Shown here piece after piece: positions 18,758-63,032 of a stretch of DNA of 64,000 bases (within the stretch, counting starts at the first letter, position 1; each line of letters begins with the position of its first letter). The stretch covers positions 10,451 through 74,450 of IMG/VR virus record IMGVR_UViG_3300007722_000007; one strand, 5' to 3'. The notes beneath the pieces were generated by a model. That model saw nothing but the letters and a program-made list of their open reading frames with translations. It had not been told where the DNA came from and searched no databases. Both the position numbers and the translations under genes were made by a program. This DNA comes from a virus.

Positions 18758-21700
18758 TTGTCTATTAAGGACCCCATGACTGACACGCTCTCCCCCATTC
18801 GCGATTACGAGTACAAGTCGTTAACCGGTCAATTCAATATAGATGAAGCGCTTGGGATCATTGAATGCTTCGTGGCGGGCATTGGCAATAAGGATTCCGT
18901 CGGGGATGTATGCCTTCCGGGCTGTTTTACGAACTCGCTAAAAAGAAGAAAGCCACGGGTTGTTTGGGGCCACAATTGGAACGAGCCCATTGGGAAGGTC
19001 CTTGAAATATACGAGGTCGGCCCAAACGATCCGCGGCTACCGACAAAAATGAAAAAGGCCGGCATTGGCGGACTTTATGCAAAGGTCCAATTTAATCTAA
19101 AAGCAGAAAAGGGACGCGAGGCATTTGCTAACGTCGGGTTTTTTGGGTTTGACCAAGAGTGGTCAATCGGCTACAAAACGTTAGATGCGGTATTTGATAG
19201 CACCCAGCAGGCCAACCTATTAAAAGAAGTAGAGCTGTACGAAGTCAGCCCTGTTCTCCATGGGGCGAATCAGTTGACAGGGACGATATCCATCAAGTCT
19301 GATGAGCCCGCCGCGGATCCTGCTAATAATTCAGCACTCGCCGGCCCCAATGGTGCTGAGATGAAAAACCAAGTAACTGCGATTTACGAAGCGGTTACCA
19401 ACCCTATTAATACCGTGGTTGGAAGAGCGGCGGATTTAACGCGGGCGCTGTCTGCGCACTTTGGCGGCCCCGTTCGCCTGGTTAGTGCCGACCACGATAT
19501 TGCCATCTTTGAAATGGGAGCCGGACAATCTACGGAAACGATGCGGGCCACATACCATTACGACGGTGATGAATTCATGTTTGGAACAGCGCAACAGGTG
19601 CGACCAGAAACAATTTATATTCCTATTCATTCTTCGCTGGGTAGCAGGGAAAATGGGGAAACAATCGCGCCCGGCATCACATTGGCGATGCTACCGGCAA
19701 TCGGCCAAAATATTCTGGATGTGCTGACATTCTCGGCCGATAAAAAGGATAGTTGCTGTGATGAGTGCGCTATCCACGGCGGCTCTTGCGGGGATTCAAA
19801 ATCGGCGATGACCCTGTCCGAGTTCAAATTAGCGAACCCTGGCACCCATGTAATTATTAGTCCAACCGATCCGGTGGAATCGGCGGATATTTTTGACACA
19901 GTTAGAACGGTTAGCGAATATCACGGCTTCTCAATAAAAATTTTGACCGAGGGGATTGTTGTTCAAAACTACGACACCCTGCAACCAGATGCCATAACCG
20001 CAATCACGACCGTACTCAGCGGCATTGAGGCAAAGGGGCTACGACCAAGTCTCAATAGACGGCGTACAAACATGAACCCGATGACGGCCCGCAACGCCGA
20101 CAATGATGAATTTGTCTTAGAGGGAATCCCGACAATTAATAGGGGTCGCGGGGTTATCGATCCAACGCCGGGGAGCGATGCAAATGTCCCCAATTTGAAC
20201 CGAAATCGTCGCGGGGCCGAAATGATGCCATCGGTGCCACAGCCGCGCGAGGTCCCCGAAGAAATTCCTGAAGTTGCGCCAGCGATACCGCGTAGGAAGC
20301 CAGACGAAGAACCCGAAAAAGTTCCAGAAAAAGTTCCAGAAAAAGAACCTCAAAAGGAACCAGGGCGTCCACCACCGATAACCGTTCCACCAGAACGCGA
20401 ACCATGGAAGACCCCGCCGCGCCCCGTGCCAAAACCGGAACCAGCGCCGACGCCGCCACCAAGACCAGTAACGCCTCCGATTCCAGAGCGACCAAGGGTC
20501 CCAGATGCACCACCAGTGCCAGTACGGCCACTAGTCCCTGTCGGCCGGGCAAGCACGGCTAATCCGAGCGGGAGCATGAGCTCTTCTCTTGAGAGCATAG
20601 ACACCGAGATGGATGCCATTAACCGACGATTAGCTACCGCCTCGCTAACTAACACCTTTGAAAATACGAACCGTTCAGCTCCGGAATTGATCCGGGACAG
20701 ACGAAGACTACAGCAGCTGATCCAGCAGCGGTACGCAATTGAGCGGAGTAGAGGAAACGATGCAAGCTCATTCACTGGGGAAAAACTGCCGGACGCTGTT
20801 TCCGCGCGCGGAAACATTGGCGGCTCTAGGCAGGCCCAAGCGGAATTGGCGAGAAATATATACCTAGCTCGCCAGCACGGTGGGATGTCTCTCGATCAAG
20901 CATCACACGAATTTGGAAAAACCAGAGAAGAAATTAGACAGTTGGAAGTACGCCACATAAGCTCGCTGCGGAATCTCGGCGAAACTCATCCAAATAGATT
21001 GTCGCGCAGAGCGCTGGACAATCCGTCCATCCCGCTTTCTAGCGATTCTATCGATTTGTTGAAGCGCAGACTTGATGGGGAGACACTCGACGAAGCAGCA
21101 CAGAGACTTGGGACTGACAGATATTCCGTTCGTAGATCAGAACAACTAGCCTTATCAAAATTGCGAAATTTTTTAGAATTAAATGACGATATAGATCTGC
21201 CAGTCGGAATGCAATTAGCAATTGACGCGCTGGCAATGGCGGAGGACGTCAGCGATTTAAAAGACGATAACGCCAATCAGGATTTAACGGATGCGGTACC
21301 CGATGTTGTATCGGGGAATTTTGGTACCGATGCCCCAACTGGGTCGATGGCGTCAATCTTGCGGATGTCATCAGATAATGACAATGAGCGGAGCGGGCCA
21401 GACGAAAAATTAAATAGACGCCTTTACGACAAATACGGCGATGACTCGATTGATAAACTTGCAAAAGATAACGATCTTTCCAAGAATGAAACTATTGCGC
21501 GAATTCGTGGCCATGCAATAAATCTCTCAGCATCCGAGAGCCCGCGACGCGCCGAGATGCGCTCCCTTGTAAATAGACACCGGGATTCTGTAACGGAATC
21601 CGATAGAAGAATATTAAAATTACGCCTCAACGGCGCATCCCTGGTCGACACAGCCGACGAAACCGGTTTATCGCGGGAGGAAGTACGGCAACGAGAACAA

Positions 21701-24700
21701 AAGGCTATTTCTAAGCTTAGGAAACTATCTGGGTTGGCGGATGATCAGCCAACGGTGATCCGGTCGACATTCGGAGCCGACGAAAATGGACCTTATATTG
21801 TTCAAGCACTGTCGGACGGAACGGAATCAACCCGCACAATCGGGCCAACGGAATTTGACAAACAGTTTAATTATGCATCCGCAACATCTTCCTTTGATGA
21901 ATTCGCACGAATATTAGAGGATGATAATTTCAACAGCAGTCCAAGCGGATCAATGAAATTCGGCACCAAAAAACACAGGGCCGGCGACTCGGTGGCAACT
22001 CTTAATAAAGACGGAGAATACGAGAACTACGACATACAAATTGATAGAACGAATCCGGATAAACCGTTTATTCGCGCTCGGCGCGCGTCGTATCCGGAAA
22101 TTGGACAAAAACCAATTCATGAATTAATTGGCGAGCGTATGCCAAACGGTCCAGAATTTGATGACGGTCAGAACACTTACTGGACACGCCACCAGGATCA
22201 TCACGCATTTGTTTCGTCGGCAGAAGCTGATATTCTGGAAATCGCATCAAAAACAGGACCAATAAAATTTAAGGACGGCATAATCTCCGGTCATTATGTC
22301 GACGGTAATGGAAAGGAAATTAATTTCTCGATTACGCCGTCTCTTACTACAGGTCGGGATAGCGGCCGGAATCTTGTTTTATTTAATTCCAGCGAAAGCG
22401 AATTCGGTATTCAGTTCCACAACGCCGGGAAGGTTGAAAACGTCGTCCCCAATGTCATTGAAGTGGCGATGTCCGATAAGGAAAAATTGGACGCACTTCT
22501 CCAGACCGGTACTGGAAAAAGGCTGGCTACGGCCGGGCGCGGATTAACTCATCAATGGTGGAAGCAATCAACATGGCAATTCCGTTATGGAGGTAAAGAC
22601 AGTGCCTCAAAGACCATCACAAAAGATCCACAGACGGATATTATTGCCCCAGACGCCGATGACCTAATAGCCAAAGCCGACAGGCTCGGTGTTTTTAACC
22701 CAGCCGTGGACATGGGCATTGATCCAAAATCGGATCAGGGCAAAAAACTTACCGTTGTCACAAGCATCGCGAACCGATACAGCATGAGTGGGACATTATC
22801 AGAAAAACAGTGGGCCTATTTACGAAGCCTACTTAAAGGTTTTGATGACAGCGGTGTTGCGCCAAGTCGGCAGGGCGCAACAGATATCCCAATCCTCAGG
22901 GTTGACGGACCGGAAAACCTACCAGGGCCATCGGACGTGTCGCCAGAAGCCCCCGAGGACGACACATGGGCGGAGAAACTGGCAAAAGTGGATTCCGTTG
23001 ATCTTTCCGATATGACGCGTAGTCATGTAGATATGGACACCGGCGAAATAACGCGTTATGCAACGGTAAATATCGGTGATACCAGTCGCCAGTCAAACCG
23101 GTATGTTGTCGCGGACGAAAACGGCGTTCTTCGTAAATGGAATCATCCACGCGGCGCAGATCAGCAGGGCTGGGAAAGAGGCGGAGGATTACATTGGCCG
23201 GCAAATGAGGTCGGTGATGAATACGATGAACTGGTAGAGCGTGTTAACTTCCAGCGCGGTCGGGTTCCAAACGAAGAAGCCGTGATGATAAGTAGTAAGC
23301 CGTGGGTAGAGGAAGCAAGATTGCGCAGGGCGTCCGGTGAAGATATAGATGCCGAAGATGTTGAAGCTGAATATCGGGAGCTTGGACTTTACGGGATGGA
23401 CATGACGCGACCGGACGGATGGGATGAAAGCGATACCCATATTACGATAGGCAGAAATAATACCACCGAGAGCATTGTTGATGCCGTGAGCGCCCATATT
23501 AAAACCGGAAAACCGTTGCAATTTGGCTACAATAAAAACGACGGCACACCAACGACGACGAGAGTTCTGCGTTCGGCGCGGATGGGGAAAAATCCGCATA
23601 CCGGAGTCCACTATGTCATTGGCGGAGACGGCATAGACGAAAAAAATTACCGAGTAGATCGGATAGTCGGCTACGATAAAAATTTAGATAAGAACGCAAG
23701 TAAGCCTAAAACTGATCCGCCGAATACGCGATTTAGTGGAGAACGGCAGACCGGTGGCGGAAGCGGCGAACGTCGCCCGCGCGATAAGCCAGCCGATTCA
23801 GGCGAAGAAGCACGGCGAATACGGGAAGATGAGGCAGACCCCGGCGCCTGGGGCGACAATGTGGATAATGAAAACGACAGACGATCCAGGGAAAGGGCGC
23901 CTCGCGAAGAGAGAGCGCCTCGTGAAGAGAGAGAAGCGCCCAAAAAGGAGCGCTCCGGAAATACTGCGCCCCGCGAACGGGAAATGATAAGAGTCGGAAC
24001 ACGCGGGGTGATTGGAAAAACTATTGCCATTAGTGGCTCGGTTAATAATAAGGAAAAAATTGGTCAGTTATTGGATGCGGCTCGTTCTAATAATAGAGTC
24101 TCGTTTATGTACGGCAACAAACCGTATACCGTTTCGTTTCTTGATGTCGAGGCGGGCGCCTCATTATCGGAGTTCTCGGATCTGTGGTTTCTCCACGCTA
24201 CTGATAGCGACGACAATATACGGAAAAAATTTGATGTCTCTGAGATAAATATGGATAGACCCAATGATCCGGTGGCGTCGGGTAGGGCGATCGGATCAAT
24301 ACTCACCGGCGCAGAGCGAACACCGGGTAGGCGGAATTTTGTCAATATTCCGCTGGGGGTTATGGTCGCCGACCATAACAGACAGAGGGAACAAGCGCGG
24401 ATATCGCACAAAAAATCTACCGATTCCACCGACAATTCAATAAGCGGCTCCATGGACCTCACTCCGACACGAGTCAATAATTATTTTCCTCCGTCATACT
24501 GGACACCGAATAAGCATGATGCGAGATACGCAGCAATGCCCCGCGAAGAACAAGACCAAGAATTGCAAACGATTATATCCAGACTCCATTCGGATGCCCC
24601 CATTGACGCGGCGCAGACCAATGACCTCCTGGATAGATTCGCGGCTATCGATCGAGTTATGCGCACGGATGGCAAATCTTACGTCGATGAATTCGGCATA

Positions 24701-27034
24701 GAAATTGAGAGAGCCCCAAATGGGGAGTATTTGCTTACCGGCAACGTGGATATAAGCGTCTTTGAAATGGCAAATCCGTCGGGTTCAATGGGGCGTTACG
24801 CAAGGCCAACTAATTCGTCAGATCGCGCAATGGATGATTCCTATAATGCGCAAATATACAATGAGCTGAATGATTTAATGTCGTCAACTTCCGATGCGGA
24901 CGCAATAAGGCAACTTGCTCGTCGCCATGGAACGAGTGAGCATAATATACGCAGGCGACTCAATGTGGTCGACAGGGAACGCGCACGTGAAATTTCCGCC
25001 CTTGACAGGGTCGGCGATATTCAGGATGATATCGATCGTGGGGATATATTATTTGACGACCTAGAAATGACCCTTGATTTAAGCTCATCGGATTTTGACA
25101 CAGTTAGGAATATCGACTACGTATTAGGCGAGCTCGATCTCAGATACAGCAGTAATAGCCCCAGCGGGAGCATGGCATTGCGACGCGGCGAGGACCTGTC
25201 AAGCAAAACAACGGACGAACTGCGAGAGTTATTTAATGAATCAATTGAACAACTCTTTGGATCCGAGAGGCCTCATCCCAAGGATAACGCAACAAGATCA
25301 AGGTTTTTGCGGGACATTGAAAATATCGGGTCAGAAATTCAATCTAGATTCTTGGCCAGTCCAGAAGCCGTAGCAATTAGAAATAATATTAACGGGGATG
25401 ACCCAAGCGGGAGCATGTCCCTGCATCCAAGTGGAGGTCAACCCAAAATACCATTAAGCGGTAGCCGCCTAATCGATAGACGGCTTCAAAATGTGTACGG
25501 TCCAGATGATTGGGAATCTGTCGCTTTGCAAATAGGCGCAAGATTCACCAACATGGAAAATAGGGACTGGGAAAACCCATCCATGGATGACCTGATGGAT
25601 CTTCACCACCTACTAGACATGAGGGCCAGTGAAACAATCATAGTCGACGGCCTCCCGGAGGTTTTTGATGGATTTACCTATGATGTCCTTTCTATCGCCG
25701 GCGACCTAGATATAACGCCAGAGAATGTTGTTGGTTATGCGTCGCGGGGTCGCGATTTGGCCGAAATCAAGCAGATGGCCGGGATGTCCCCATTTGAGCG
25801 AGCAGAAAAAATGATCCTGATTGATAGGCGTAAGAAATTTGAAAACATGCTTGATTTGAAAAAACAAGAGCTCGGCGATGGCTACGACAGCTGGCTCGAT
25901 AGCGCGGTAGAAATAAATAACGGAATTTCATTTGATGAGAACGGCAATCCGAGAGACCGGGATTACATAGAATCACGCGGTGGGCCGTATGGCGGGTTTT
26001 TCGTATCGCCCGAAACCGGCGAGCCGGCCGATTCTAAATTAAAAGACACGCTCGGAACTTTCCTTGAAGATCTGTATAACGCCCCGTCATATCAGCCCCC
26101 CGGCGGTCCTAGCGGGTCAATGGCCTATATCGAGCAACGTTACGACATTAGGCCGAATCCAGATGGTTCGTGGTCCATAATTGATACGCATAATAATAAT
26201 TCGCCGACCGGAGAGGCATACGGAAGACGCGAGGATGCGCTAAGTGCGGCCAGACGCATGGATAGGGGGCCGAGTACGCAACGGGGCAGTTTGCGTGCGA
26301 GAAATTCTCCAAACCCACAAGCCACGCCCGATCAGGGGCCGTCACAAAGCCCGCCGGCGCAGACTCAAGATTTGACCCAAGAACAGCTGTCGTTTGATGA
26401 CGGCCCATCTGGGTCAATGATGGGGAGATTGCCTGGAAGTAAATGGATTTCAAATGACCCTCTCCGCCGCCACGGAGAAGAAGTTACGAAGCGCCATGCC
26501 GAAATAGCGATACAGAATTATCATCGTGGCCCAGCTTCAATGCCATTCGGGGGTGCCGAGGATGCGAGTAATGAAATGCTATTCAAGGGGTGGGTGGTGG
26601 CGGACTCGTCCCTAGACACCCTTTTAGGAAGACTTGAATATTTGGATAAAGTCCATACGGGAGGTTTGGATAGGGGCCGCACGGGGGGCCTAGACAGAAC
26701 CCGTATGGGTATTCCCGGGGAGCCATTTAGCACGCCGGAAATCAGGGAAAGTTACCCCGATACACCACTGGTGGATATGACTTCCGCCATCGTAACCGAA
26801 ATTGGGCATGTTCTGGCATATCTTCTCAAACTACAACGAAGGCGTAATTGGTTCCATATGAACCTAAAACGGAGAATGGAAAAGACCAATAACTACCTTA
26901 TGGCCGACCAATTTGATTCAATGAATGACAGCCGAAGCGGGATAGGCCGAGAGGAGAAAGACTCTTTGGTATCGGGTAAATTCCCACGGTATATATTGCC
27001 GTCTATCGTCAGCATGGTTGCGCAAAAATCATGA
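18758..27034 (+). CDS. HK97-family prohead protease fused to a ~2550-aa multi-module extension
   Basis: The N-terminal ~180 aa carry DSVGD, VVWGHN, PIGKV, WSIGY and LYEVSPV (His/Ser catalytic motifs). Then come a tag repeat, a Pro-rich linker and 9 GSM-delimited modules. The start may be ATG 18776. Confidence 0.88.
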   Translation: MSIKDPMTDTLSPIRDYEYKSLTGQFNIDEALGIIECFVAGIGNKDSVGDVCLPGCFTNSLKRRKPRVVWGHNWNEPIGKVLEIYEVGPNDPRLPTKMKKAGIGGLYAKVQFNLKAEKGREAFANVGFFGFDQEWSIGYKTLDAVFDSTQQANLLKEVELYEVSPVLHGANQLTGTISIKSDEPAADPANNSALAGPNGAEMKNQVTAIYEAVTNPINTVVGRAADLTRALSAHFGGPVRLVSADHDIAIFEMGAGQSTETMRATYHYDGDEFMFGTAQQVRPETIYIPIHSSLGSRENGETIAPGITLAMLPAIGQNILDVLTFSADKKDSCCDECAIHGGSCGDSKSAMTLSEFKLANPGTHVIISPTDPVESADIFDTVRTVSEYHGFSIKILTEGIVVQNYDTLQPDAITAITTVLSGIEAKGLRPSLNRRRTNMNPMTARNADNDEFVLEGIPTINRGRGVIDPTPGSDANVPNLNRNRRGAEMMPSVPQPREVPEEIPEVAPAIPRRKPDEEPEKVPEKVPEKEPQKEPGRPPPITVPPEREPWKTPPRPVPKPEPAPTPPPRPVTPPIPERPRVPDAPPVPVRPLVPVGRASTANPSGSMSSSLESIDTEMDAINRRLATASLTNTFENTNRSAPELIRDRRRLQQLIQQRYAIERSRGNDASSFTGEKLPDAVSARGNIGGSRQAQAELARNIYLARQHGGMSLDQASHEFGKTREEIRQLEVRHISSLRNLGETHPNRLSRRALDNPSIPLSSDSIDLLKRRLDGETLDEAAQRLGTDRYSVRRSEQLALSKLRNFLELNDDIDLPVGMQLAIDALAMAEDVSDLKDDNANQDLTDAVPDVVSGNFGTDAPTGSMASILRMSSDNDNERSGPDEKLNRRLYDKYGDDSIDKLAKDNDLSKNETIARIRGHAINLSASESPRRAEMRSLVNRHRDSVTESDRRILKLRLNGASLVDTADETGLSREEVRQREQKAISKLRKLSGLADDQPTVIRSTFGADENGPYIVQALSDGTESTRTIGPTEFDKQFNYASATSSFDEFARILEDDNFNSSPSGSMKFGTKKHRAGDSVATLNKDGEYENYDIQIDRTNPDKPFIRARRASYPEIGQKPIHELIGERMPNGPEFDDGQNTYWTRHQDHHAFVSSAEADILEIASKTGPIKFKDGIISGHYVDGNGKEINFSITPSLTTGRDSGRNLVLFNSSESEFGIQFHNAGKVENVVPNVIEVAMSDKEKLDALLQTGTGKRLATAGRGLTHQWWKQSTWQFRYGGKDSASKTITKDPQTDIIAPDADDLIAKADRLGVFNPAVDMGIDPKSDQGKKLTVVTSIANRYSMSGTLSEKQWAYLRSLLKGFDDSGVAPSRQGATDIPILRVDGPENLPGPSDVSPEAPEDDTWAEKLAKVDSVDLSDMTRSHVDMDTGEITRYATVNIGDTSRQSNRYVVADENGVLRKWNHPRGADQQGWERGGGLHWPANEVGDEYDELVERVNFQRGRVPNEEAVMISSKPWVEEARLRRASGEDIDAEDVEAEYRELGLYGMDMTRPDGWDESDTHITIGRNNTTESIVDAVSAHIKTGKPLQFGYNKNDGTPTTTRVLRSARMGKNPHTGVHYVIGGDGIDEKNYRVDRIVGYDKNLDKNASKPKTDPPNTRFSGERQTGGGSGERRPRDKPADSGEEARRIREDEADPGAWGDNVDNENDRRSRERAPREERAPREEREAPKKERSGNTAPREREMIRVGTRGVIGKTIAISGSVNNKEKIGQLLDAARSNNRVSFMYGNKPYTVSFLDVEAGASLSEFSDLWFLHATDSDDNIRKKFDVSEINMDRPNDPVASGRAIGSILTGAERTPGRRNFVNIPLGVMVADHNRQREQARISHKKSTDSTDNSISGSMDLTPTRVNNYFPPSYWTPNKHDARYAAMPREEQDQELQTIISRLHSDAPIDAAQTNDLLDRFAAIDRVMRTDGKSYVDEFGIEIERAPNGEYLLTGNVDISVFEMANPSGSMGRYARPTNSSDRAMDDSYNAQIYNELNDLMSSTSDADAIRQLARRHGTSEHNIRRRLNVVDRERAREISALDRVGDIQDDIDRGDILFDDLEMTLDLSSSDFDTVRNIDYVLGELDLRYSSNSPSGSMALRRGEDLSSKTTDELRELFNESIEQLFGSERPHPKDNATRSRFLRDIENIGSEIQSRFLASPEAVAIRNNINGDDPSGSMSLHPSGGQPKIPLSGSRLIDRRLQNVYGPDDWESVALQIGARFTNMENRDWENPSMDDLMDLHHLLDMRASETIIVDGLPEVFDGFTYDVLSIAGDLDITPENVVGYASRGRDLAEIKQMAGMSPFERAEKMILIDRRKKFENMLDLKKQELGDGYDSWLDSAVEINNGISFDENGNPRDRDYIESRGGPYGGFFVSPETGEPADSKLKDTLGTFLEDLYNAPSYQPPGGPSGSMAYIEQRYDIRPNPDGSWSIIDTHNNNSPTGEAYGRREDALSAARRMDRGPSTQRGSLRARNSPNPQATPDQGPSQSPPAQTQDLTQEQLSFDDGPSGSMMGRLPGSKWISNDPLRRHGEEVTKRHAEIAIQNYHRGPASMPFGGAEDASNEMLFKGWVVADSSLDTLLGRLEYLDKVHTGGLDRGRTGGLDRTRMGIPGEPFSTPEIRESYPDTPLVDMTSAIVTEIGHVLAYLLKLQRRRNWFHMNLKRRMEKTNNYLMADQFDSMNDSRSGIGREEKDSLVSGKFPRYILPSIVSMVAQKS
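20072..20170 (+). repeat. 33-aa shared tag, copy 1 (MNPMTARNADNDEFVLEGIPTINRGRGVIDPTP)
   Basis: Near-identical to 29134-29232 and 47100-47198; shares 46 identical nt with copy 2. Confidence 0.95.
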
Positions 27035-27169
27035 CAGCCCTATCCCGTGGTCCAATAATGCCATCCGCTGCCGCGGCAGTGAGAAAAGAGATAAACTTGA
27101 TTGATAAATGCATAAAATTTTCACAACAATTACAGAGTTCAAGTAATAGCAGTAAATAGATACACAAAA

Positions 27170-28993: not shown

Positions 28994-29007
28994 ATCGGCG
29001 GTGCGGC

Positions 29008-32000
29008 ATGGCCGACGCCGAAAACACAAAATCCCATAACGACGTTCGTCAAAACCGACGAACACACCGTAAATCAAATTTTCTGACTTCGCAAAAGGGC
29101 ATCGGTTCGCCAATCGGCGGCCCCCAGAGGGACATGAACCCCGCCACGGCGCGGAATGCAGATAATGATCTATTCGTCCTAGAGGGAATCCCGACAATTA
29201 ATAGGGGTCGCGGGGTTATCGATCCGACCCCGACTGGCTCAATGGCTGGTAGCAAGCGCTCTAAGCGCCGCAAGGCTCGCAAGTTTGTCAACGATCTAAT
29301 CGGCGACAGCGATGTTACTGATCCAGAATTTGACTCTGCGGATATTGACGAGGATACCCCGCTATCGCTATTGGATTACGAACAGGATAGTTTGTTCCCA
29401 GAAGACGATTTCATCGTACGGCGTTCTGGGGTGCCAGAGATTTTTGAGGATGAACCTTGGGATGATTCCGTTGATTACGCTAGCGCCTGGCGGGAATATT
29501 TAAGAAATTCCGGCCTGGATGACACGATCGATCCGAATGATTTTGACATAGACGAATCAGACCTAGCGGCACTGCCATTTTATAAGCCCCAAAGTGACAT
29601 ACTCGGCAGAACGTATCCGGGAACGAGCGTAGCGAAGCCCTCATCGGGTCCCAAGAAATTTGACGATTACCATAATAAAACGAAATACGCTGGGGATAGA
29701 TATGTAATCACGCAACAGGCCTTAACGCTGGCTAGACACCGGGATTTAGTCGCCAAATCACGATGGGACACAATCCACAATGCACACTACGACTGGTGGG
29801 CATTTCCGATTGACAGGGGCAGTGGAGGGTATGGAAATAAATATAATATCGCCGGCAAACCGCTTTCTAGGCTGAAAAGAAATAAACGATTTCTGAACAA
29901 TGTGGCTGAGGCAATTCATATCCAAGCACTAGCCCTTGGTTGGGATATTGACACAGATGACTACATCGCCGATATTGATTGGGATACAGGACAGGACCCA
30001 TGGCTCGCATACCCAACACGATTTTGGAAAATGACTCGCTCTGCTCAAATACTAGGTCTAGATAAGGAATTTAACTCGCTCTTGTTATTGCAGGCTTCGT
30101 TAAGCGAGGGCGGAATCAGATTTGGTAGACGCGAGTACTGGGATAACCCGGGGCCCCCAGGGGATAGCACGCCGCTCAAAAAACGGAAATATGAATATGG
30201 CGACGGAACGGTTTCTGGGTCGATGGCCGGCAATAAAAAAAACACCGACAGCAATTGGAGAGGCGATTTTTCCGAGCAGTTGGCATCCGGATTTGTTGGC
30301 GGTATGGCCGGACTGCGCAAACGCATGAAAAGCGACTCATTAATTGCCAATCCACTCCATGAGTATTTTTTACAACGGACCACATCCATGGGTGACAACC
30401 CGACCACCGGTCGGCGACCCAGCGACCTAGTGATAAATCCCTATGCTGGGGAAAACATAATCGGCGCCGCCGAAGCGCGCGATTGGTTTGATTTTGCGAT
30501 CATGCTAAATGACACGCAATCGTGGGTGCTGGAAAACGCCAACAATGGGGAGCAAATAAATGATGGTTTATTTTTCCAGAATTCTTTCCCGCGGATGGCT
30601 TTGGCAAAACTATTGATGGGCCAGATGGGACGCGACGATTCCGAAATGAATACAGTTGCAAATCTGCGACGCGCAGGAAGAAAGATGATGGCGGAAAATA
30701 ATATAGACGGAGCCGATTTCCCTATTCTTGCTGGAGATATTGCAAACCCGTTTATTAAGAAAGTTGAATCTACCCCGAACGGCTGGTTAGTTACACGCCA
30801 TGATGACGCCAGGAAGCTGTGGTTTTGGTTTAGGGACGAAAGGGAACAGGCGCTGGCGGACCTCGGCCGCGCAATAACTAAAGATAGACAGAAAAACAAA
30901 TTAGCCGATCCAGCGCAATGGCTAGACGGATCAGGCGTTAAGGCATTTTTCAAAAATCGAGCGAGCAAGCAATCGCCGATAATCGGCCCGCTAGGCGGCT
31001 CGACTCCGAAACGAATGGAACTAAGTAAAATTACTTTACCGCCTGGGCGATTTGCTAATAGGGACAAAATTGCAGCTCTGCGGAATAACGGCAATTTCAA
31101 CAATCATGCCAATCCGGTTGATACTTGGTTAGATAATGTTTCCCGCGGGGACGCACTGCTGAGTGGCCGCAGGCCTATCCCGTCGACCCGATGGCCGATG
31201 GACGAATTAGAGACCCGCGATTGGTTTGACTATTGGCTGATGCTGTCTGACTCATTGCCGGAAATAACCGCACGAGATTTTGAGGTGCTAAGAGAAGCTG
31301 GGCCGCATATTAGAACTAGCCCGAATGAATGGCTACCCCAGGATGACGAACAGTGGAATGAAAACAAACTGATTAACGAAACCCAACGGCGCCATGACAA
31401 GGTTAAATTTGTAATGGCCGAAGCACTCAAATATCTCTCTGCGCTTGCGCGGCCTGACGAAAATGATAATAACGATGTGGTTTGGGAAGACATGCGCAAC
31501 GCCGGCCAGTCGATTAATCAACGATGGGGGATTGACGCACAAATAAATGCCGAAATAAATCTTGCGGAAATGCAAGGCAGGGATTGGCCATTTAGGGAAT
31601 ATGTCGCTCCGGAAAAATTGAACAAAGATGTAATTAAATTTGGGCAACTGGGTAATTTTGCCACTGCGACACCAGACGGATGGATTGTAAATACAAAACA
31701 CGCAGATGGAGAAATGAAACCCCGTGCTTGGCGCATTTCTGATTCCGAAAGAGATTCCCTATACGACATGATCGGGGCCATATTAAATACGGGCGAAGAG
31801 AATTCTCCGCTTGGTGTCGATAATGCCACCGGAGACTCCGAATTAGATCTGGGCATGTTTCTGGAAAACCGAGCACAATTTTTCAAATCCGACGAACCGA
31901 CTTTTAAATACTCAAATCGATTCGGCGACGATGACGATGCCCCCAGCGCACGTTCTAGAATGTTGTCATATACAGACTCCGACCAGGCAGGCGACTATGT

Positions 32001-32781: not shown

Positions 32782-32876
32782 CCGAATAATACCCATCGGC
32801 ACCCTGTTCCAATTGTCATACGGTATTCCTATGCTAATTTGTTATCGGGTCTATAATTGGATCACGCAGAGATGCA

Positions 32877-45667: not shown

Positions 45668-45676
45668 ACTTAGATT

Positions 45677-46641: not shown

Positions 46642-46718
46642 TCTCACGCTACCTTCCCGCGTTCACCAATATTATTGGTACGATAAACGCACACGAAGTA
46701 TTCTGACGCAGGGATAAT

Positions 46719-52700: not shown

Positions 52701-55700
52701 CAAATGCAAAATTTCCTGATTAATAGTATAGACGAATCCGTTAATTCAGCCGAGGATTTTGTCGACAGTTTGTCACGGGAACAATTGTCTGTTATTTCCG
52801 ATCACGTAAGCTCTGGGCAGGGGCAACCTCGGACATTAAGTAGAGAGGATAACGAAGCCGAACGGACAGAGCAATTCAGACAGCAGTCCGCTTTGGGTAT
52901 TTCGCATTATTCCGCTACCCAAACTGGTAGAAACCAATTACGCACGATCGCATCTTTGATGAAGGAAAATACAAAAGTTCAGCTCGCCGATGATGTAATT
53001 GATAAAATCATTTTAAGTGCAAGCCAAGATGAGATCTCCTTTGACGCCGCGCTTCGGGCGTTATTCCCAATTGATAACTATAACGATATGGGTGCAATAT
53101 GGTTCCATGTAGTCAAACCGCTAACGGGTGTAGATAGCGACATCGCACGCGAACTGCAAGATGTTGCAAATGAGTCGACAGCACGAATGCGACGACACGC
53201 GTTCGTTTTGGCAATTCACGGGAATAAAGCCAAAAATGAACTTCGGCACACGCTCTATAATTTTGTCAAGAAGTACCCCGTTGACGGCGTCGGATCGGTT
53301 CGTATTGCTGGGTCAAACGAGACCACCAATGACATTGCCGATCTTTCGGCGGATGACCAAAATATAATTCGCTCGATTCAATTTGACACAATCAGTTCAT
53401 ACGATGGTACGACAGAATCCGCAAATCGGATAATAGGCGCGTTGACGTCTCAACAAATTGAACGACTATTTGAGAAATTCATTCTGCCGGCGCTTCATAA
53501 AAGTAATCCCGGCCTGGCCAATAAAAGGTCCATCAACCAAGCCAGAATAAAAATGCAAAAACAGCTCGCCAGGATCAATGCCGAGTTTTCCAAGTCACCC
53601 CACGGGGTGTCCACGTATACCAATGCCGATGGATATGGACCGGATGACATAACGGATCTAATTACGACTGCCGCCAATAGCGCCTTCGGAGATTTATTGC
53701 CAGATGGGACAAATGCCGACGACTTCGGAAACTATGTATCGCTCGTTGACTATTTTTTCAGTGGCGGTAGGGAAATTCTTCCAATCGGCGAGTATGCGGA
53801 GGCGGCGCGCAAATTGCAATACGCACAAACCCGGCTCGGCAAGAAACAAAGTGCAATCGCTGCTGATCGAGTGGAAATGACACAACTGGCAAACGATGCC
53901 GGGGCACAGCTGGATAGCGATGTCGCCAGCCTGCTAAAACAATTCATTAATCGTGATGACGATGACGCCGTATCACGGGCCTTGGATGAAGAAGAGTTTG
54001 CACGCCTCCAAGAACAAAAGCGCCGCCACAGATCAGAAATAAAAAAATACAATGTCCAACCGGCGGACAGTGAGTGGGAGGAAGCCGATGACGTATTTGA
54101 AATCGATAACGAAAATCCAAGCGGATCTATGTTGTCCGCACTGCCGAATGTTAGTCCGCGGTATATCGCTCTTCTTGATGCAAAGCGGACACCGCGTAAA
54201 AAGCATGACGATGAAGCGCGTTCCCAGTTTAGTATAGCCGAAAAACGCGCAATAGAAATTGTGCGCAATAACGGAATTGATATCCCAAATGACTATACGG
54301 GAATTGACAGCCAGACTTTTGATGGAACTGCAATGAATTTATTTTCAAATGCGGGCGCTGTCACCGCGTCAGATATAGAAAAACGTCTAATTTCTATACA
54401 GAAAGCTATCAATATAGAACTTGAAAAAATAATCGTGTCGGAGTTTCCGCACTCCGAGTTTAGGGCTGACTCAAGAGGATTAATGCTCTATGTCCCGGCG
54501 CGTCTTCTTGCGGACGGCCCCGAGGCGCCTGATGCCATCGCCGAATTTGAACCATACGACGCTAATACCGATGATGATTTATCGCTGCGCCCACAAAATT
54601 TTGATATCCGCACCCACCCAACAGCCGTCGCTCTGCGCGACCGTCACGATAATTTTACTGGGGCGAAGCATTCTTTTGGCTCGGAGTGGCTACACGAAAA
54701 TACCCGATACGGGACAGAAACGAATAAGCTCTTACAGCTACTTGAATCAGACCCGTCATCATTGGATATGGACAAGATCCTGGCGTATGTTGAATCACAG
54801 GGCGACTGGATGGACATAGAAACCCTGCCGTTGTCATCTGGATTAGTAACCGAATCGCCGATAGGACGCACTACCGGTTTCGGGGCGGAACGTAGAAGTC
54901 GTCTTATCGATACGGCCCGCTTAGAAAAAGAGAAGAAAATTGTTCGCTCAAAAGCCCTATCCAGTAAGGCCCTTCGGGATTCCTGGTGGCCTCTGTTCAC
55001 CGGACCAGACACGCTTGATGAAATAGAAATTGCGCAGACCTCTGGCTACCTGGAAGAAGCGGTCATTGCCGGCCTGAAAACCGTCGCTCGTGAAAATGGT
55101 CAAATTGATAATTTTGACAGAATGCTTTCTCGCGCACGCCAAGCCGGCAGGGACAGGGCACAAGAACTCGCTCGCTCATTTGCGCTCGCAAAAATTGTTG
55201 AAATAATAGACTCAAACGAGTCTATAGCGGGTCAGCTTTTTCATATCGACTCGCTTATACAGGATGCCGAATTATCCAAAGACGTCACATCAAAACAGTA
55301 TCAGGCGCGAATACGGGCAGAAATACTAAAACGTGTGAGCTCTCAACGGACGCTACTTAATACACGTAAACAACTTGAGCGCTACGATGCGATCACAACC
55401 ACTCCGCGTGATTATTTGTATAATCTACAAAAGTGGGATGCAAATTACGGCCCGATACTTTTGCAACTTGAAGCCGGGATCCAAGATCTCAGCATCCAGG
55501 CAGAGGCGAGTCTTCGGGCTCTCCGTGGCTATGATGAAACAGTTTCGGAACTTCAGGAACGAGTTAAGGAAATACGGGAATTAGCAGATAACGCAGCCGA
55601 ATTTATTCGGATTAGGGCTCTTCAGAGAGCGACCGATGATGCGCTACAGGCACTAAGCGATGACCCTAACAACATTATGGGCGATGGATCGTCGCCATCT

Positions 55701-58700
55701 GGGTCGATGAAGCGGGTCGGGAGACATCCGACCACTGGAGTCGCAATTTACGCTCAGGGCGTTCAGGCACAAGAAGCCGAGCGACGGGATGCACGCGTGC
55801 TGATGACGCCTGCCGAAAAAGAGTTTTCGCAGCATGTGCTCCGCCAGCTGAATGCATTAAAGGGCCTTGATCTGACGGACATAAATGCCAGCTCCAAGAT
55901 TGCGCGACAGTCGGCGCTTGGCGCTTTGGTATCAGGGAATATACAAGTTTCAAGAATTGCACAATCCGTCCTTGGGCTACAACGGACAGCCCGCTCCATA
56001 AGAAGTAGGTTTTCTAGAAATTTAGTATCTAATCTGCGATCGGGGCCAGATGCAACAATTTCAGACGCTGTAAGAAATTCAATTCTTTTAGAGCGAAGCC
56101 GCCTCCACGCAAATGAATTAACGCCCGACTACGCCGTATTCTCTGAATTGGCGGAATCCATTCTTCCGGCGGTGTCCGCAACAATTCTTTCCGACCTACG
56201 AAATATTGGCCGAGATAAAACAATTTTAAAACATGGGATATTTGATAGAGGCGTATCCCTGATAGAGCACGAGCGATCAGAAATTATGAACTCAATCCGT
56301 GACGAATCAAAAACCTCACCGATGTCCACTATCGCCGAGCGCTTAAACTTGGACCTGAATTTACTACGGCGGGCGCTAGACGCAGATTTGCAGTCACGGA
56401 AACTTGCAATTTTAATTACCGGGGCGCAAGAAATGGCCTACATCCTAAAAGATGGCTATACAAAAAATGCAGCCGCGGGAATAATATCTGAAAAAATACC
56501 AGAGCTTGGGGAACTTGGCATTACGATTGAGGCAATACTGGATACGCCAGAACATATTGCACTAGCATCCCTGGATAATATAGAACTGGCATTAAGACAC
56601 ATCGCAAAATCCAACGCCAATACGCTTTATGTATCCGATCAGATAGAACGGGCTGCCCGTAGTGCCGGCATTCCAACTTCGTCAATAAATTCACTACGTA
56701 AATTTTCTGCCGAAATTGAACAGACGAAGCGGTATGGCGGCCTAAGATTTGATGCACTAACTCCAGATGATTGGAGATTTATGACCTATGGGGAGCAACT
56801 TGATTGGCTCGATTCGGATATGGGCAAAACCGCCATACCGGAAGAAATGCGTCAATTCCAGAAACTCCAATTAAATGAAATGGCAGAGGCTTACGGCTCC
56901 CTTGATGGGCCCTATGGCGCAACGGCTTCGGCTCTCCGTCGCTCAAATATATCCGAAGCTATTTTTGGGATGAATTCGGTTACCCCGACCGGAGAAAGTC
57001 CGATATTCTCATGGGTCGGCTTGAAGGATTCAGACCTCGTACGAAGCGGTAAATTTCCCACAAAATCGATCTTTGAAAAATATGGGTCTTTGGGGATTCT
57101 GAATGATGTTGCGCTCGCGGCATTTTTTAATACACAACCAGGTGTAATCAAGAAACTTCGGTCTGGTAAATTCGGATTATCAACCGCGGCGGCCTCGCGT
57201 GTGGCCAATGCGCTTGGCGTTCAATTAAACGACATCTGGTCCAAAAATAAAAAGATTGACAAGATAAAAGCCCCAAATGGGCATTTTTTGTGGATCGCCG
57301 GTAACTGGTCGGTTATCCAAAAACTTCTTGAAATGAGTGATGCGCACCGAAGCGATGCCGCAATTGAAAAAACACTTGGGAAACGTGCCGTGCTACAGCT
57401 AGCACAACTTAAAAAATTACAAAAAAATAAAACAATGGACGCCTTTGGTAGGGCCGTGGGCAAAACGAATCCATCAGATAGCGAAGTTCGCAAATACTTG
57501 CTGTCCGTAATGCCAACTTCCAAAAAAGATGCCGTGCTGGCCTTGGCCCAATCAGGCTACGGAGAACAGGACATTATCGGCGTAACCGGGTTTAATGCAA
57601 ATACGGTAAGGAACATATTGCACGACCTTAGGCGGGCCGGAATCGCCCCCGACGCCGTAGGAAAGAAAATTTGGATAATGGCCAACGCCGACAAGGTTAT
57701 TGCCGACATGGCCGGCGGTATGTCAAAACGACAGGCGATGAGAAAGTATGGAGTCGGAGCAGAAACAATACGCTCGATATTAACGGAATCCAATGCGCCA
57801 ATAGACTATCAGAATGCCTCAGATTTGATTTCGGGAGATAGTCCGAGTGGTTCAATGGCAAATAGAAGAGTGGGTGAAGATGTTGAACAGGTAGCCGGCC
57901 CGACCCCGGCTTGGGACTCGGACGATCCGAGCGTTCGCGTATTTCTTCCAGAATTTCCCCCGACCGTTGTCGCGGAACCGTATAGCCCAGAAACCGGCCC
58001 GGCATCCGCTCGTCTCCGCGCAAACGGCGCCGCAAAAGACCAGGATGCATTAAATCGCTGGAGGCCGTCTATGGCCAAAATGTTGAATTGGGTCATGAAC
58101 GGTGGGGTTTTAGAAAACCATGATGATGCGCAGAATCTCATCGACGATGACGAGTTTGATCTAGACGCCACCTCCGCGGTGGACGAGCCAAACTTTTCAA
58201 TTACGATGCCGGATGAAGTTGCTATCGGCGAAGCAATTGACGGAATGAAGCTTAGCGTCGACCAAATGGATGAGTATGGCGCTTTCCCCGGCATCGGGCG
58301 TGCCATGAATAATCTTTTTGAACAAGCCATTTTGTCACTATGGCGGTTGGAAAATCAACCTCGGGGCGCATATGACGGAGCCGACATGGATGGCGATTTT
58401 AGGGACATGCTTGAGCCGGACGAAGATATTGATGATACCGATGGGCCGGGGATGTCATTTAGCGACTTTGTAAGTATGGTTGTTAATTCCCTGGATCCGC
58501 GCCCAGTTTTGATAACCGGATCGGACGCAGACTGGTTGAACGAATTCGCGCGATCGTATGCGGCGTCAAGAAACACACTTGATGAATCAACAGCCGAAAA
58601 CGCAGACAGACTATATAACTTATTTATCCGCAAGTTAAACTCATCCAAAGATTCTAAGCAGTGGATGCAAAAAGCGAGATTTATGGTTTCCATTCAGAGC

Positions 58701-61700
58701 ATGGCGAACCATGTAATTGATAAATTCGCCCTGGCGAGTTTCAATGCGTCTATGAATTTTGATAATCCAGGCGTTGTCGACGACCAGGTAGCTGCGCATT
58801 TCTTTGACAGGGTACTCAAGTCCATATACGATTTGCCTGGGGCTGATTTGGACTTCGTTGACAGGGTGATAGGAAAAGCAAACGATGAGAGAAACGCGAC
58901 CATGATAGATAGACCCTGGGCGGACGAAGATGATGATATAGACGATCACGCCCCGATTACGCTGTCCGCGTCAGCCCGCGAACAATTTAATGACGCCGCA
59001 AACGGCATAGCGTCGACGGTTGCACAATTATTTTCAGACCAACTGGCGTATCATATTGGTACTAATTCCAGTTCCGATCCAATGGTTGGAATCTTTCCGC
59101 GAAAAGACTGGACTGGTCAATGGACAATTTATGGACCAGATATTGTGTACGCCGGTTATGGCGCCAAAAAACCTTATAACAGGTCGGTTAGGTGGAGCGC
59201 CGATCCTAGCCTAAATGCCGGAATTGTAAACTTTGACGAAGACTTAAGTGGTTCGCCGGATAAGTATCTGTGGGAGGTGCGTTTTGACGCGGACGGTGAG
59301 TATGGTGTTTCGGCCCTTGAATTGATGCAAATGGACGCATCGGATGAATTCGGTGCATTTATTTCGCATATTGCAAGAAACAGGGATGCCAATGAAATCG
59401 GTTCAATTGCAAAAATCATTAATGACCTGATTCAGCCGACCAAAATGCTCCATATCCCAGAAGGCATGACGGCAGCGCTACGTGACCTTTCGGAAATGAT
59501 GCAATACGAGATTGAAACCCGAGATGACTTCCCCGGAATATCATCCGGGAATACGGCAAACAGAATGTTCCCGTGGATCGACTGGAATAAAACCCACGAT
59601 CTGTATCCGGTACTTAACATGGATGACATTATTACGGGCGAGCAACGAAGTTGGCCATGGGTTGCCAAAAGAGCGGTTATAAATCAGAATTTGCGCCGGG
59701 TGCGCGAATATAACAAAATGCAATACGGCATCGTTATGGAGATGACGCAAGATCTACATCAGGCTGAGGACTTAATTGAAATGTATAGTGGTTTAATTGC
59801 CGCACTGAAATCCAATGCGGAATTTGCCGAAGATGAGGAAATGCTCGGCCGAATTGCGGATGCCGAAAGACAGCTCGCTAGACAGCAGGATTTCAAGGAG
59901 GCACTAGAGCCGGTCATCGGTCCTACGATTGAGCAATTGGTGAAATTTACCGCCGGACGGCTGGAATCGCTTGATTCGGTTATTTCCGTCGGCGAGATGT
60001 TGAGAAAAATTGCGATATTCGACCGCGAGCATGACGCCAGGGTGGAACGTAAAAATTTACTTGGGAAATATAAGCGAACAGTCCTTGATGTCGCCCAACT
60101 CGACCGAGTGACAAACGACGGCGCCACATCAAATAAGGATGACGTTTATATTCCGACATTTAATGAATGGCTCGGAAGCAATGGTTACGAATACCTAACT
60201 TACGAATACAAACATGATGAGATACCGCCAAGCGATGCCGTCAGCGGATCAATGGCCCTCCATAGGTATACAAAGCCGGGCCTATTGGCCATTGTTCATG
60301 GTCACGAAGAGGCGAAGAAATCTGATCACAACGAAGTAAGTGTCCCGCACCTCCTATTGGGCCTCGCACGAGAAAATATCGGCAAGCGGGCGTACAACCA
60401 GACCATAGCTGGGCGCGTTCTAAAGAGGCTGAATGTAGACATTAATAAATTGCGCACCGCAATTAATGAGATCATTGCACCGGGGGCCCCCGACGGTAAC
60501 AAGGAGAACAGAATTGTTCCAATTAGCGCAAACGCTCGGACCGTAATGGTTAGGGCAGTAAAACAGGCGATGAATAAGGGGCAGAATTTTGTTGGTACCG
60601 ATCACTTACTGTTGGCGATAGCAAGTGCCAATGATAAATATGACGACTCATTGTCCGGGGTGTTAAGCGAGTTGGGCATTACAAAAGAGCAGCTTATCGC
60701 TGAAACGATCGCGGCGACTGAGGCATTCAATATGGGTTCCTTCCCTAACGAAGCCGGTCCGTCAGGCTCAATGCAGTTTTACCCCAGGCAGACAGATGAT
60801 CAAAGGGAACGTGCGCGTGCATTTATGATAAAGGCGGCGGGAGATGAGTGGTTTACTGTCGACAGGGTTATTGAAATTGTTCTTAATATAGCGACAGACA
60901 AACAACAGGTTGACGAATTTGAAAGACTGCTTGACGAATACGTAGTTAAGATTTCCAGTAAGCAAATTAGCGCCAACGATTATAGGAATGGGATGTCTCC
61001 TTTCTCGGTAAACGCAATTCTCCAAACGAACTCCGCATTGATATTCGGAGATATTGGGCAAGAACCAACTGACTTAGTCGGCGCAATCGCTTACCGCATG
61101 AATGTTATTGACGTACTCACCGGGATTGATGCGACACAGGCCGCGCGCTATGCCACAATAAGACAACAGGCCAAACTATTTTTTGATACCGATTCCCACG
61201 CCCAAATATTTGATGGCGAAAAGGATGCTCCGAGTGGCTCAATGGACGGCGCCGGCAGTTTTGGCCTAGTCTACGAACCGATTGGTAAAATGTTCGTTTC
61301 TCGGCCGCAGATGCCGCAGGACGAATATTACCAGTCGATTTATGGGCCCGCGCTGGAATCCGAGTCAGAGCTTAGAAAAGCCGCGGCTGCCGTCAACCTA
61401 TCAAGTCCACTTAATCTAGATTTGAACTTAACATATGGCGATGATGACGATGTTACCTGGTCTTCAAACGCCTGGTCAATTGCGAAAACAAGTTTCATAG
61501 AAGGATCAGACGCAGTCATCATGCGTATGCAGGGAAATGACATCACCACCGCCCAATTGCTGATGATTGACAGAAAATCCGGTCCGTTTACAAACGCCAA
61601 GGCATTAGTGGGCGGACTTCGTGACGGGGACGAAGACTACATGACCACGGCAACACGAGAGGGCCTAGAGGAAGTCGGTATCGATCTAAATAACTCGATA

Positions 61701-63032: not shown

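Follow-up and report, generated by a model that had tools for sequence, protein, structure and literature searches.

A recurrent Gly-Ser-Met linker peptide in the giant head-region proteins of an uncultured tailed phage: a candidate signal for proteolytic processing

The head island and its four giant proteins

We analysed 64,000 nucleotides of viral DNA (positions 10,451 to 74,450 of IMG/VR record IMGVR_UViG_3300007722_000007, hereafter the window), which form the last 64 kb of a 74,450-b contig that is estimated to be about half complete. Our subject is a short peptide, [PVI]-[ST]-G-S-M, that recurs in four giant head-region proteins and by which these proteins appear to be divided into about 29 pieces or modules. 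On the plus strand the genes follow each other as a portal-MuF fusion (16473-18692), an open reading frame (ORF) of 2758 amino acids (aa) with an S78 protease, the further ORFs of what we call the head island, and the capsid gene (63372). The protease gene is placed directly 3' of the portal and is separated from the capsid gene by this island of about 44.6 kb, of which the protease is the first gene and the capsid gene the closing end. Between the 2758-aa ORF and the capsid gene lie ORFs of 607, 1257, 1748, 217, 703, 1481, 141, 189, 5437 and 65 aa. The peptide is found in the 2758-aa ORF (ORF 18758, named after its first nucleotide) and in those of 1257, 1748 and 5437 aa (ORFs 29008, 32877 and 46719). 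The minus strand encodes the tail sheath, the large terminase, recombination genes and ParB/PAPS-reductase-like genes.

Near-identical DNA is present in independent assemblies from three further studies (freshwater 2017, estuary 2022). These independent contigs cover the 5437-aa ORF at at least 99%, with zero insertions or deletions and zero single-nucleotide polymorphisms within any motif; as they span this ORF without an insertion or deletion, the giant reading frames can be taken as real.

The genes, domains and tags on which the analysis depends are given below. Three of the four giant proteins (ORFs 18758, 29008 and 46719) have in common a tag of about 45 aa, which is 72-84% identical in BLASTP comparisons among the window proteins. 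G001 denotes a complete 173,962-b genome with terminal repeats that is syntenic with the window.

16473..18692, plus strand: portal protein with C-terminal MuF-like head-morphogenesis domain (phrog_2662, E 2.7e-95; phrog_2468 at aa 492-736)
18758..27034, plus strand: 2758-aa polyprotein with S78 protease (aa ~16-210), conserved domain, tag, Pro-rich spacer and nine motif-bounded modules
18758..19400, plus strand: HK97-type (MEROPS S78) prohead serine protease domain (Pfam and PHROG matches)
20066..20173, plus strand: tag copy 1, aa 437-472 of ORF 18758 (BLASTP between window proteins; alignment)
21587..21724, plus strand: sigma-70 region 4 domain (aa 944-989), inside module 865-1066 (PF04545, E 3.9e-13)
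29008..32781, plus strand: 1257-aa protein with N-terminal tag, motif, widely shared 327-aa module, second motif and 851-aa module
29131..29232, plus strand: tag copy 2, aa 42-75 of ORF 29008, with PTGSM directly after it
32877..38123, plus strand: 1748-aa double-zincin protein, each HExxH inside its own motif-bounded module; no tag detected
34878..34892, plus strand: HExxH 1 (HEMEH), aa 668, kept in the G001 ortholog
37005..37019, plus strand: HExxH 2 (HEFGH), aa 1377, kept in the G001 ortholog
46719..63032, plus strand: 5437-aa polyvalent protein with tag-bearing N-terminal region and 12 motif-bounded modules, including Clp_N, NUDIX and Zeta toxin
47097..47198, plus strand: tag copy 3, aa 127-160 of ORF 46719
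60255..60773, plus strand: Clp N-terminal domain module, aa 4513-4685 (PF02861, E 2.3e-14; PDB ClpC1/ClpC2 N-domains, E 1e-10)
61548..61907, plus strand: NUDIX domain, aa 4944-5063 (PF00293, E 1.2e-6)
62412..62846, plus strand: Zeta-toxin domain, aa 5232-5376 (PF06414, E 7.3e-19)
63372..63998, plus strand: major capsid protein, 5' part, running off the contig (70% identity to the 440-aa G001 ortholog)

By tblastn the portal matches the 'portal and MuF-like fusion protein' of Streptomyces phage Gilgamesh, and the 440-aa capsid ortholog of G001 matches the major head protein family phrog_10 (E 1.5e-63). ORF 18758 probably starts at the ATG at 18776 rather than at the listed TTG, since its orthologs begin at the corresponding Met; these orthologs, of 2929-3222 aa, retain motif sites. 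A PDB sequence search with ORF 18758 gave no match. For ORF 46719, orthologs of 5244-6466 aa are present in five other lineages. A word-based homolog search with its residues 1-5000 finds only the protein itself, and the C-terminal 931 aa give 10 matches (one Nudix, nine Clp_N), which were used only to deepen the alignment. Ten single modules compared with Pfam at E up to 0.5 yielded nothing above threshold.

Recurrence and conservation of the linker motif

In the four ORFs (11,200 aa) we count 24 exact copies of [PVI]-[ST]-G-S-M and one variant, ATGAM (Met codon 47472): nine copies in ORF 18758, two in ORF 29008, two in ORF 32877 and 11 plus the variant in ORF 46719. All 24 Met codons are ATG, in frame after [PVI]-[ST]-G-S. 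The sites are listed here with their counterparts in relatives; 'coil' marks those located in coil of low confidence (predicted local distance difference test, pLDDT, below 50) in AlphaFold2 models.

20564..20578, plus strand: PSGSM, Met 607, ORF 18758; G001 counterpart PVGRM
21335..21349, plus strand: PTGSM, Met 864, ORF 18758; relatives PSGA[IV]
21941..21955, plus strand: PSGSM, Met 1066, ORF 18758; relatives P[VI]G[SAE]M
24440..24454, plus strand: ISGSM, Met 1899, ORF 18758; relatives P[FV]G[AS][LI]; coil
24776..24790, plus strand: PSGSM, Met 2011, ORF 18758; relatives PFGKM; coil
25160..25174, plus strand: PSGSM, Met 2139, ORF 18758; relatives P[VI]GAM; coil
25403..25417, plus strand: PSGSM, Met 2220, ORF 18758; relatives P[VT]G[SL]M, offset 3 aa; coil
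26108..26122, plus strand: PSGSM, Met 2455, ORF 18758; relatives P[AV]G[SA]M; coil
26405..26419, plus strand: PSGSM, Met 2554, ORF 18758; relatives P[AS]G[GEA]M; coil
29230..29244, plus strand: PTGSM, Met 79, ORF 29008, directly after the tag; G001 ortholog has the tag, then GPVGQM
30211..30225, plus strand: VSGSM, Met 406, ORF 29008; no G001 counterpart, in a region of insertions and deletions
33828..33842, plus strand: VSGSM, Met 322, ORF 32877; no counterpart in G001
35994..36008, plus strand: PTGSM, Met 1044, ORF 32877, separating the two zincin modules; G001 counterpart PLGKI
47460..47474, plus strand: variant ATGAM, Met 252, ORF 46719, first site past the tag; G001 counterpart PIGAV
49638..49652, plus strand: PSGSM, Met 978, ORF 46719; G001 counterpart PSGAM
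50169..50183, plus strand: PTGSM, Met 1155, ORF 46719; G001 counterpart PIGKI
50802..50816, plus strand: VSGSM, Met 1366, ORF 46719; G001 counterpart PVGRM
51981..51995, plus strand: PSGSM, Met 1759, ORF 46719; G001 counterpart AVGSM
54117..54131, plus strand: PSGSM, Met 2471, ORF 46719; G001 counterpart PVGSM
55695..55709, plus strand: PSGSM, Met 2997, ORF 46719; G001 counterpart PVGNM
57843..57857, plus strand: PSGSM, Met 3713, ORF 46719; G001 counterpart PAGAM
60240..60254, plus strand: VSGSM, Met 4512, ORF 46719; retained in six lineages; pLDDT below 50
60759..60773, plus strand: PSGSM, Met 4685, ORF 46719; retained in six lineages; coil
61230..61244, plus strand: PSGSM, Met 4842, ORF 46719; retained in six lineages; coil
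62166..62180, plus strand: PSGSM, Met 5154, ORF 46719; retained in six lineages (M or V); coil

An earlier note on this DNA had listed the same sites, and every one of its coordinates holds. It had also put the chance expectation at less than one copy: from composition we calculate 0.035 copies in 11,200 aa, and in 2,000 shuffles the mean was 0.034 and the maximum 1 (24 observed against 0.035 expected, Poisson P ~2e-59). Its remark that copies are missing from the portal, terminase and tail proteins extends to the other 41 ORFs of the 74,450-b contig (13,080 aa, including portal, terminase, sheath and capsid protein), where the count is zero. The free codon use that it described is equally apparent (four Pro, six Ser plus two Thr, and four Gly codons) and places selection on the peptide, since Pro, Ser/Thr and Gly use all their codons. 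Pieces between sites measure 79-851 aa (about 80-830 aa according to the note) and, as the note had stated for the domains it recognised, the motif flanks Clp_N, NUDIX, Zeta, sigma70_r4 and each HExxH while interrupting none of them. Two further GSM tripeptides (28190, KEGSM; 49779, RNGSM) are not preceded by P/V-S/T and fall outside the set. The relaxed pattern [PVIA][STVA]G.[MILV][small] occurs at background rate in all window proteins, so that only the strict motif is meaningful in the window.

Comparison with relatives supports the view that PSGSM is a selected inter-module signal confined to giant proteins of the head region. Searched with the protease region, IMG/VR gave 228 related loci, most with a protease protein of about 700 aa and a subset with fusions of 2400-3750 aa. 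G001 contains 24 P-x-G-x-M, all in its 3190-aa protease fusion and its 852-aa and 5345-aa head proteins. The remaining 43,325 aa of G001 hold none, against 3.5 expected (P=0.03), which weakly suggests avoidance of the motif outside the cargo proteins. When orthologs are aligned (30-45% identity), [PAV]-x-G-x-[MIVL] stands opposite 22 of the 24 window sites in G001; column identity over the 24 sites is 79% for P, 4% for x, 92% for G, 17% for the second x and 62% for M, against about 25% in the flanks, and the last column reaches about 85% if M, I, V and L are taken together. Alignment gaps are commoner upstream of the motif than downstream. A third genome, G005 (109 kb, 55% GC), has 32 [DE]-[ST]-G-x-M, all in five head-island proteins of 2040-6466 aa, with 1.3 expected genome-wide and none elsewhere. 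The count over the phage proteome and relatives that the earlier note had asked for finds the motif, in the flavour of each genome, in head-region proteins only, in the window contig, G001 and G005 alike.

Six lineages (35-40% identity) hold, in the same columns, each of the four sites that ORF 46719 has in its last 1000 aa; the forms are PSGSM, PVGKM, P-x-A-S-M, E-A-G-M, D-T-G-x-M and [DE]-S-G-x-M. Only three features are constant across them, namely the Met, one small residue before it (-2 or -1) and another directly after it (+1). The core signal, as read from these alignments, is a small residue (G/A), a free position, Met and a small residue (S/A/G/T), and the residues upstream of it are a lineage flavour. 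Flavour is uniform inside each genome and different between genomes (PSGSM, PVGxM, DSGxM). This wider G/A-x-M-small signal had been missed by the earlier note, as had the tag on three of the four proteins and its absence from the zincin protein.

A more distant relative, L002 (IMGVR_UViG_3300042889_001436; protease region 44% identical over the best segment), has the flavour V-[ST]-G-x-M. One such site lies just past its protease domain, another at aa 74 of the next ORF (501 aa), and five are found in its zincin protein of more than 2486 aa.

These comparisons bear on several explanations of the motif. The Met might mark internal translation starts, or be the scar of start codons left by gene fusion; a Met followed by A/S/G does resemble natural N-termini, and modules are found as parts of other genes. 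A Shine-Dalgarno-like sequence is present upstream of only one of the 24 motif ATGs, compared with 7% of the other in-frame ATGs and roughly half of the true gene starts. Moreover, orthologous sites can have I, L or V in place of Met, and the conserved upstream P-x-G, written in all synonymous codons, would be left without a role. With few ribosome-binding sequences, a replaceable Met and selection that reaches the upstream peptide, we reject internal initiation as extremely unlikely.

Self-cleavage between Gly and Ser, with Ser as nucleophile (N-to-O acyl shift), was among the mechanisms proposed in the earlier note. Gly-Ser is indeed present at 24 of the 24 window sites, where the free position before Met is always Ser. 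In relatives the aligned position holds A, R, K, N, Q, L, E, T or G instead of this Ser, and cores of the form A-S-M or A-G-M are seen in some lineages; the sites are moreover found in unstructured linkers, not in a bond-straining fold. As Ser is not kept in relatives this proposal has been dropped; its probability seems next to negligible.

A host protease could also read the motif, either after injection or in late infection. We find nothing that specifically favours this, and it is very unlikely: the flavour differs between closely syntenic phages while being uniform per genome, which argues for a phage-encoded reader, and the motif is confined to proteins of the tag and head-island group.

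Linker positions, cassettes and the shared tag

To see where the sites fall in the fold, AlphaFold2 models were made of aa 4480-5437 of ORF 46719 (17-row alignment, mean pLDDT 64) and of aa 1880-2758 of ORF 18758 (8 rows, mean pLDDT 54). All ten modelled motifs are located in segments with pLDDT below 50 and without regular structure, between more confident domains (structure prediction per module had been proposed as a check in the earlier note); such segments make up 26% of the ORF 46719 model and 46% of the ORF 18758 model. The Clp-N fold begins one residue past Met 4512 (ClpC1 residue 3 aligns with aa 4515), and the module is without an AAA+ domain.

The motif-bounded modules behave as cassettes, judging from their recurrence in other orders and other proteins. 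Zincin module 2 of ORF 32877 forms the entire post-motif (cargo) part of tag-bearing proteins of about 900 aa in other lineages. The Zeta module starts 3 aa from a motif both in the window and in P0008, an unrelated protein of 3688 aa, and the 327-aa module of ORF 29008 (aa 80-406) recurs after a motif, at various positions, in 12 other tag-bearing proteins.

The tag (consensus MNPxTARNADNDxFVLEGIPTINRGRGVIDPTP) is closely associated with these chains. Among 1.84 billion representative proteins its profile finds 37 clusters only, 35 of which have lengths of 850-6391 aa. In G001 tag and motif occur in the very same three proteins, and the first motif comes directly after the tag in ORF 29008, in the 852-aa protein of G001, in P0025 and in P0030.

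Two observations concern the tag and the N-terminus of ORF 46719. At 47197 (plus strand) the match between estuary contigs and ORF 46719 stops where the tag ends, and beyond it these contigs encode TGSMAGSKRS, with which ORF 29008 continues. Either the tags of ORFs 46719 and 29008 have been exchanged in that population, or the assembly branches where the tag is repeated. The tag DNAs of these two ORFs in the window share at most 14 identical bases in a row. Furthermore, at 46851-46952 (plus strand) the N-terminus of ORF 46719 encodes a small conserved module with the sequence RDPxGGLTAAGRAHF in it (Pfam DUF3721, E 2.7e-4, below threshold), which in the protease fusions of G001 and L016 is found directly after the protease domain and which is not present in the protease protein of the window.

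The position in disordered linkers and the conservation would suit any short linear motif, and it might be argued that the peptide stays uncut, as a conserved hinge or as a short peptide that docks onto the capsid interior, onto DNA or onto a chaperone or host factor, in which case the proteins remain full length. In support of this, N4 packages its virion RNA polymerase without processing (PMC5512222). Zeta, Nudix, Clp-N and sigma region 4, whose cytoplasmic targets are unrelated, would then stay tethered to each other, and a chain of 5437 aa (about 600 kDa) would presumably be harder to inject through a tail than pieces of it. Furthermore, we know of no precedent for a docking motif that is repeated 9-12 times per chain, at every module border, after a tag and on a chain headed by a protease. 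A hinge or docking role is for these reasons distinctly unlikely.

Candidate proteases and relation to known systems

On balance we consider it probable, from the comparisons above, that the motifs are proteolytic processing sites which divide capsid-targeted polyvalent cargo, with the S78 protease as the probable cutter, after Met. Comparison gives good support to such a predicted cleavage signal. We infer that the proteins are packaged, cut and injected, and likewise which enzyme and which bond are involved, as follows. The tag on the protease polyprotein and on two other giants would carry the precursors into the prohead, where the S78 prohead protease, the first domain of one polyprotein, would cut each linker. 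The most probable cut is after the invariant Met, with Pro at P5, Ser/Thr at P4, Gly at P3, Ser at P2, Met at P1 and A/S/G at P1'. This would free the tag pieces together with the single-domain modules, namely a Clp-N decoy, Nudix, Zeta toxin, sigma region 4, the zincins and about 20 unknown modules, which would be carried in the head and reach the host together with the DNA. Delivery by the virion is suggested by where the genes lie, by the fusion to a prohead protease and by the tag that three carriers have in common.

The protease domain of ORF 18758 is recognised by PF04586 (41.1 bits against a cut-off of 21, E 2.7e-10, aa 34-177) and by phrog_80 (E 3.9e-28). It is 70-78% identical across 16 relatives, with H72 (VWGHNW) and S136 (EWSIGY) invariant as the candidate catalytic pair. 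The S78 protease is the first candidate because it heads one of the chains, works inside proheads and has homologs that process internal proteins (PMC7411985, PMC10052503). A cut after Met is favoured because the variable residue then sits at P2 of known prohead-protease rules and a small residue follows Met. The G001 form, V-G-x-M followed by S/A/G, has the shape of the SPN3US rule with Met for Glu. The earlier note had proposed a cleavage signal that frees Met-initiated effectors: the selected inter-module signal stands, with cleavage as its most economical explanation, whereas products of a cut after Met would begin with A/S/G rather than with Met.

Residues 72-78 of the protease (18971-18991) read GHNWNEP in lineages with Pro-type linkers (window, G001) and GHDWN[S/H]P in those with acidic-type linkers (G005, P0027, P0032). 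This may reflect covariation of enzyme and substrate, though in two clades only and confounded by phylogeny.

The zincins of ORF 32877 could be the cutters instead, acting N-terminal of Met, in the head or after injection, and so releasing Met-initiated modules. Thermolysin-type zincins commonly choose a hydrophobic P1', and the last motif position is hydrophobic (M, or I/L/V in relatives), preceded by a variable residue as an enzyme driven by P1' would give. All genomes examined encode HExxH proteins in the island, zincin module 2 belongs to tag-bearing proteins in other lineages, and the fast divergence of zincin orthologs (31% identity) could fit lineage flavours better than the very conserved S78 domain. 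Zincin metallopeptidase (MPTase) domains have moreover been proposed as processors of polyvalent proteins (Iyer et al. 2017, PMC5512222). Nonetheless, the ORF 32877 zincins have no Pfam, PHROG or PDB match, an Atlas search with module 2 gave scores of at most 0.88, and their peptidase activity is putative. The small residue after Met and the G/A two positions before it follow prohead-protease rules (PMC10052503), and the cited experimental cases of processing of phage internal proteins are all due to the prohead protease (PMC7411985, PMC10052503). We regard cleavage by the zincins as unlikely, though worth keeping in play.

Several points weigh against cleavage by the S78 protease. Its domain is 70-78% identical across the family, yet the linker flavour varies between genomes, so the catalytic domain may not be what sets the flavour. 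We know of no S78 cleavage rule with Met at P1. In the ordinary protease proteins of about 700 aa, as compared in 11 relatives, a conserved G/A-x-M-small site was not found. The capsid protein of the window does not carry the motif, and ORF 32877 has motifs and no detectable tag. As HExxH proteins are present in every examined island, their co-occurrence with the motif cannot assign the enzyme. Finally, both cleavage and packaging are read from sequence, the phage being uncultured.

Cargo processing of this kind has parallels. In T4 a capsid targeting sequence is cut from the internal proteins (IPI-III, Alt) by the prohead protease gp21 (PMC7411985), which follows the rule I/L-x-E| (PMC12991175), while in SPN3US the rule is [A/G/S]-x-E| with Val at P4 and Ser at P1' (PMC10052503). 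With T4 and phiKZ-SPN3US (gp175/gp245) the window shares, as predicted from sequence, head-internal cargo and a targeting peptide followed by a protease site, and also the P3-x-P1| shape, a small P1' and sites in accessible (low-confidence coil) segments of head proteins. That the protease is packaged with its substrates in the T4, phiKZ and SPN3US systems is here counted as a likeness too (PMC7411985, PMC10052503, PMC12991175). The differences are that the protease is of S78 (HK97) type, not S77, and the invariant residue Met, not Glu; that the tag is about 45 aa of unrelated sequence and in two carriers not at the extreme N-terminus; and that the sites bound 3-13 modules per chain instead of one propeptide, with the protease fused to a substrate chain. 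By analogy the window system would work like the cargo processing of T4, phiKZ and SPN3US without being a member of the T4 system, as neither an S77 protease nor an (I/L)-x-E site is found.

By their domain make-up the giant chains also count as polyvalent proteins, a class of phages and conjugative elements described by Iyer, Burroughs, Anand, de Souza and Aravind in 2017, for which processing was predicted and autoprocessing by zincin MPTases proposed (PMC5512222). Zeta, Nudix, HExxH and DNA-binding helix-turn-helix modules are combined in giant chains among late or structural genes, and single chains hold Clp_N/NUDIX/Zeta_toxin (ORF 46719), protease/sigma70_r4 (ORF 18758) or two HExxH (ORF 32877). 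Here, by contrast, each border is marked by a defined recurrent peptide; a tag is shared, an S78 protease is fused to one chain, and the HExxH modules match no curated zincin model. The 2017 study describes no linker or cleavage motif and uses the word 'linker' 0 times (PMC5512222). Our own literature search (for the motif and for phage polyproteins with linkers) found no description of the motif, of the tag, or of an S78 protease heading a chain of several thousand residues.

HK97 gp4, a protease of about 25 kDa, digests the scaffold domain of the capsid protein and leaves the head. The segment C-terminal to its catalytic domain is reportedly thought to tether the protease in the prohead and to be able to carry foreign proteins (Duda, Oh and Hendrix, 2013). 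The protease family is the same (PF04586), but in the window the protease forms the front of a 2758-aa chain, and neither a delta-type extension nor the motif is present in the capsid protein. Polyproteins of eukaryotic RNA viruses are cut by an embedded protease, for instance by picornavirus 3C at Q|G; one frame with many (in the phage, predicted) products, an embedded virus protease and a short site at each border are common to both. There is no homology, and in this double-stranded DNA tailed phage the polyproteins would be accessory virion cargo instead of the replication or structural core.

If the linkers are indeed cut, the motif would be a recognition rule, the first to be defined, for an HK97-type prohead protease that acts on cargo. 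It would also allow module borders to be read from sequence in polyvalent proteins, for which processing has up to now been no more than a postulate. From about 11,000 aa of protein, mostly without annotation, one would obtain some 29 testable units, among them a Clp-N decoy, Nudix, Zeta toxin and sigma region-4 modules and two unknown zincins. Being portable, tag and linker could then serve to load foreign proteins into capsids and release them there, and the lineage flavours would form a natural experiment in the co-evolution of protease and substrate. More broadly, it is possible, although we are only half inclined to believe it, that a freshwater/estuarine family of myoviruses follows a genuine polyprotein strategy for virion cargo, in which an S78 protease with a previously undescribed Met-P1 specificity splits tag-delivered chains, the longest of about 6,500 aa, into dozens of effectors for injection, with private lineage flavours (PSGSM, PVGxM, DSGxM, ISGxM, PTAxM, EAGM) and hence cassettes that are processed only by the cognate phage.

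Some neighbouring genes may be described here as well. The large terminase (13872-16202, minus strand) has 776 aa against 436 aa in the syntenic G001, and its PHROG matches are split (aa 26-124 and 538-762); given the split matches and the shorter ortholog, the gene is probably interrupted by an insertion of about 340-400 aa, perhaps an intein or a homing endonuclease. Also on the minus strand, at 7765-9713, adjoining genes encode a PAPS-reductase-like protein (phrog_2302, E 1e-72) and a ParB-like nuclease (phrog_723, E 4e-39), 84% and 65% identical to their G001 orthologs. Pairs of this kind are often tied to DNA modification.

Within the island, the 607-aa ORF right after the protease polyprotein (27170-28993, plus strand) is without family match, tag or linker motif. 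It contains a Cys-rich stretch, GCPGGCV.EG.MP, that is kept in G005, and whether it has a scaffold or decoration role can only be raised as a question. The ORFs of 703 and 1481 aa (39127-45667, plus strand) are likewise free of tag, motif and family match, and the 1481-aa protein is 43% identical to its G001 ortholog.

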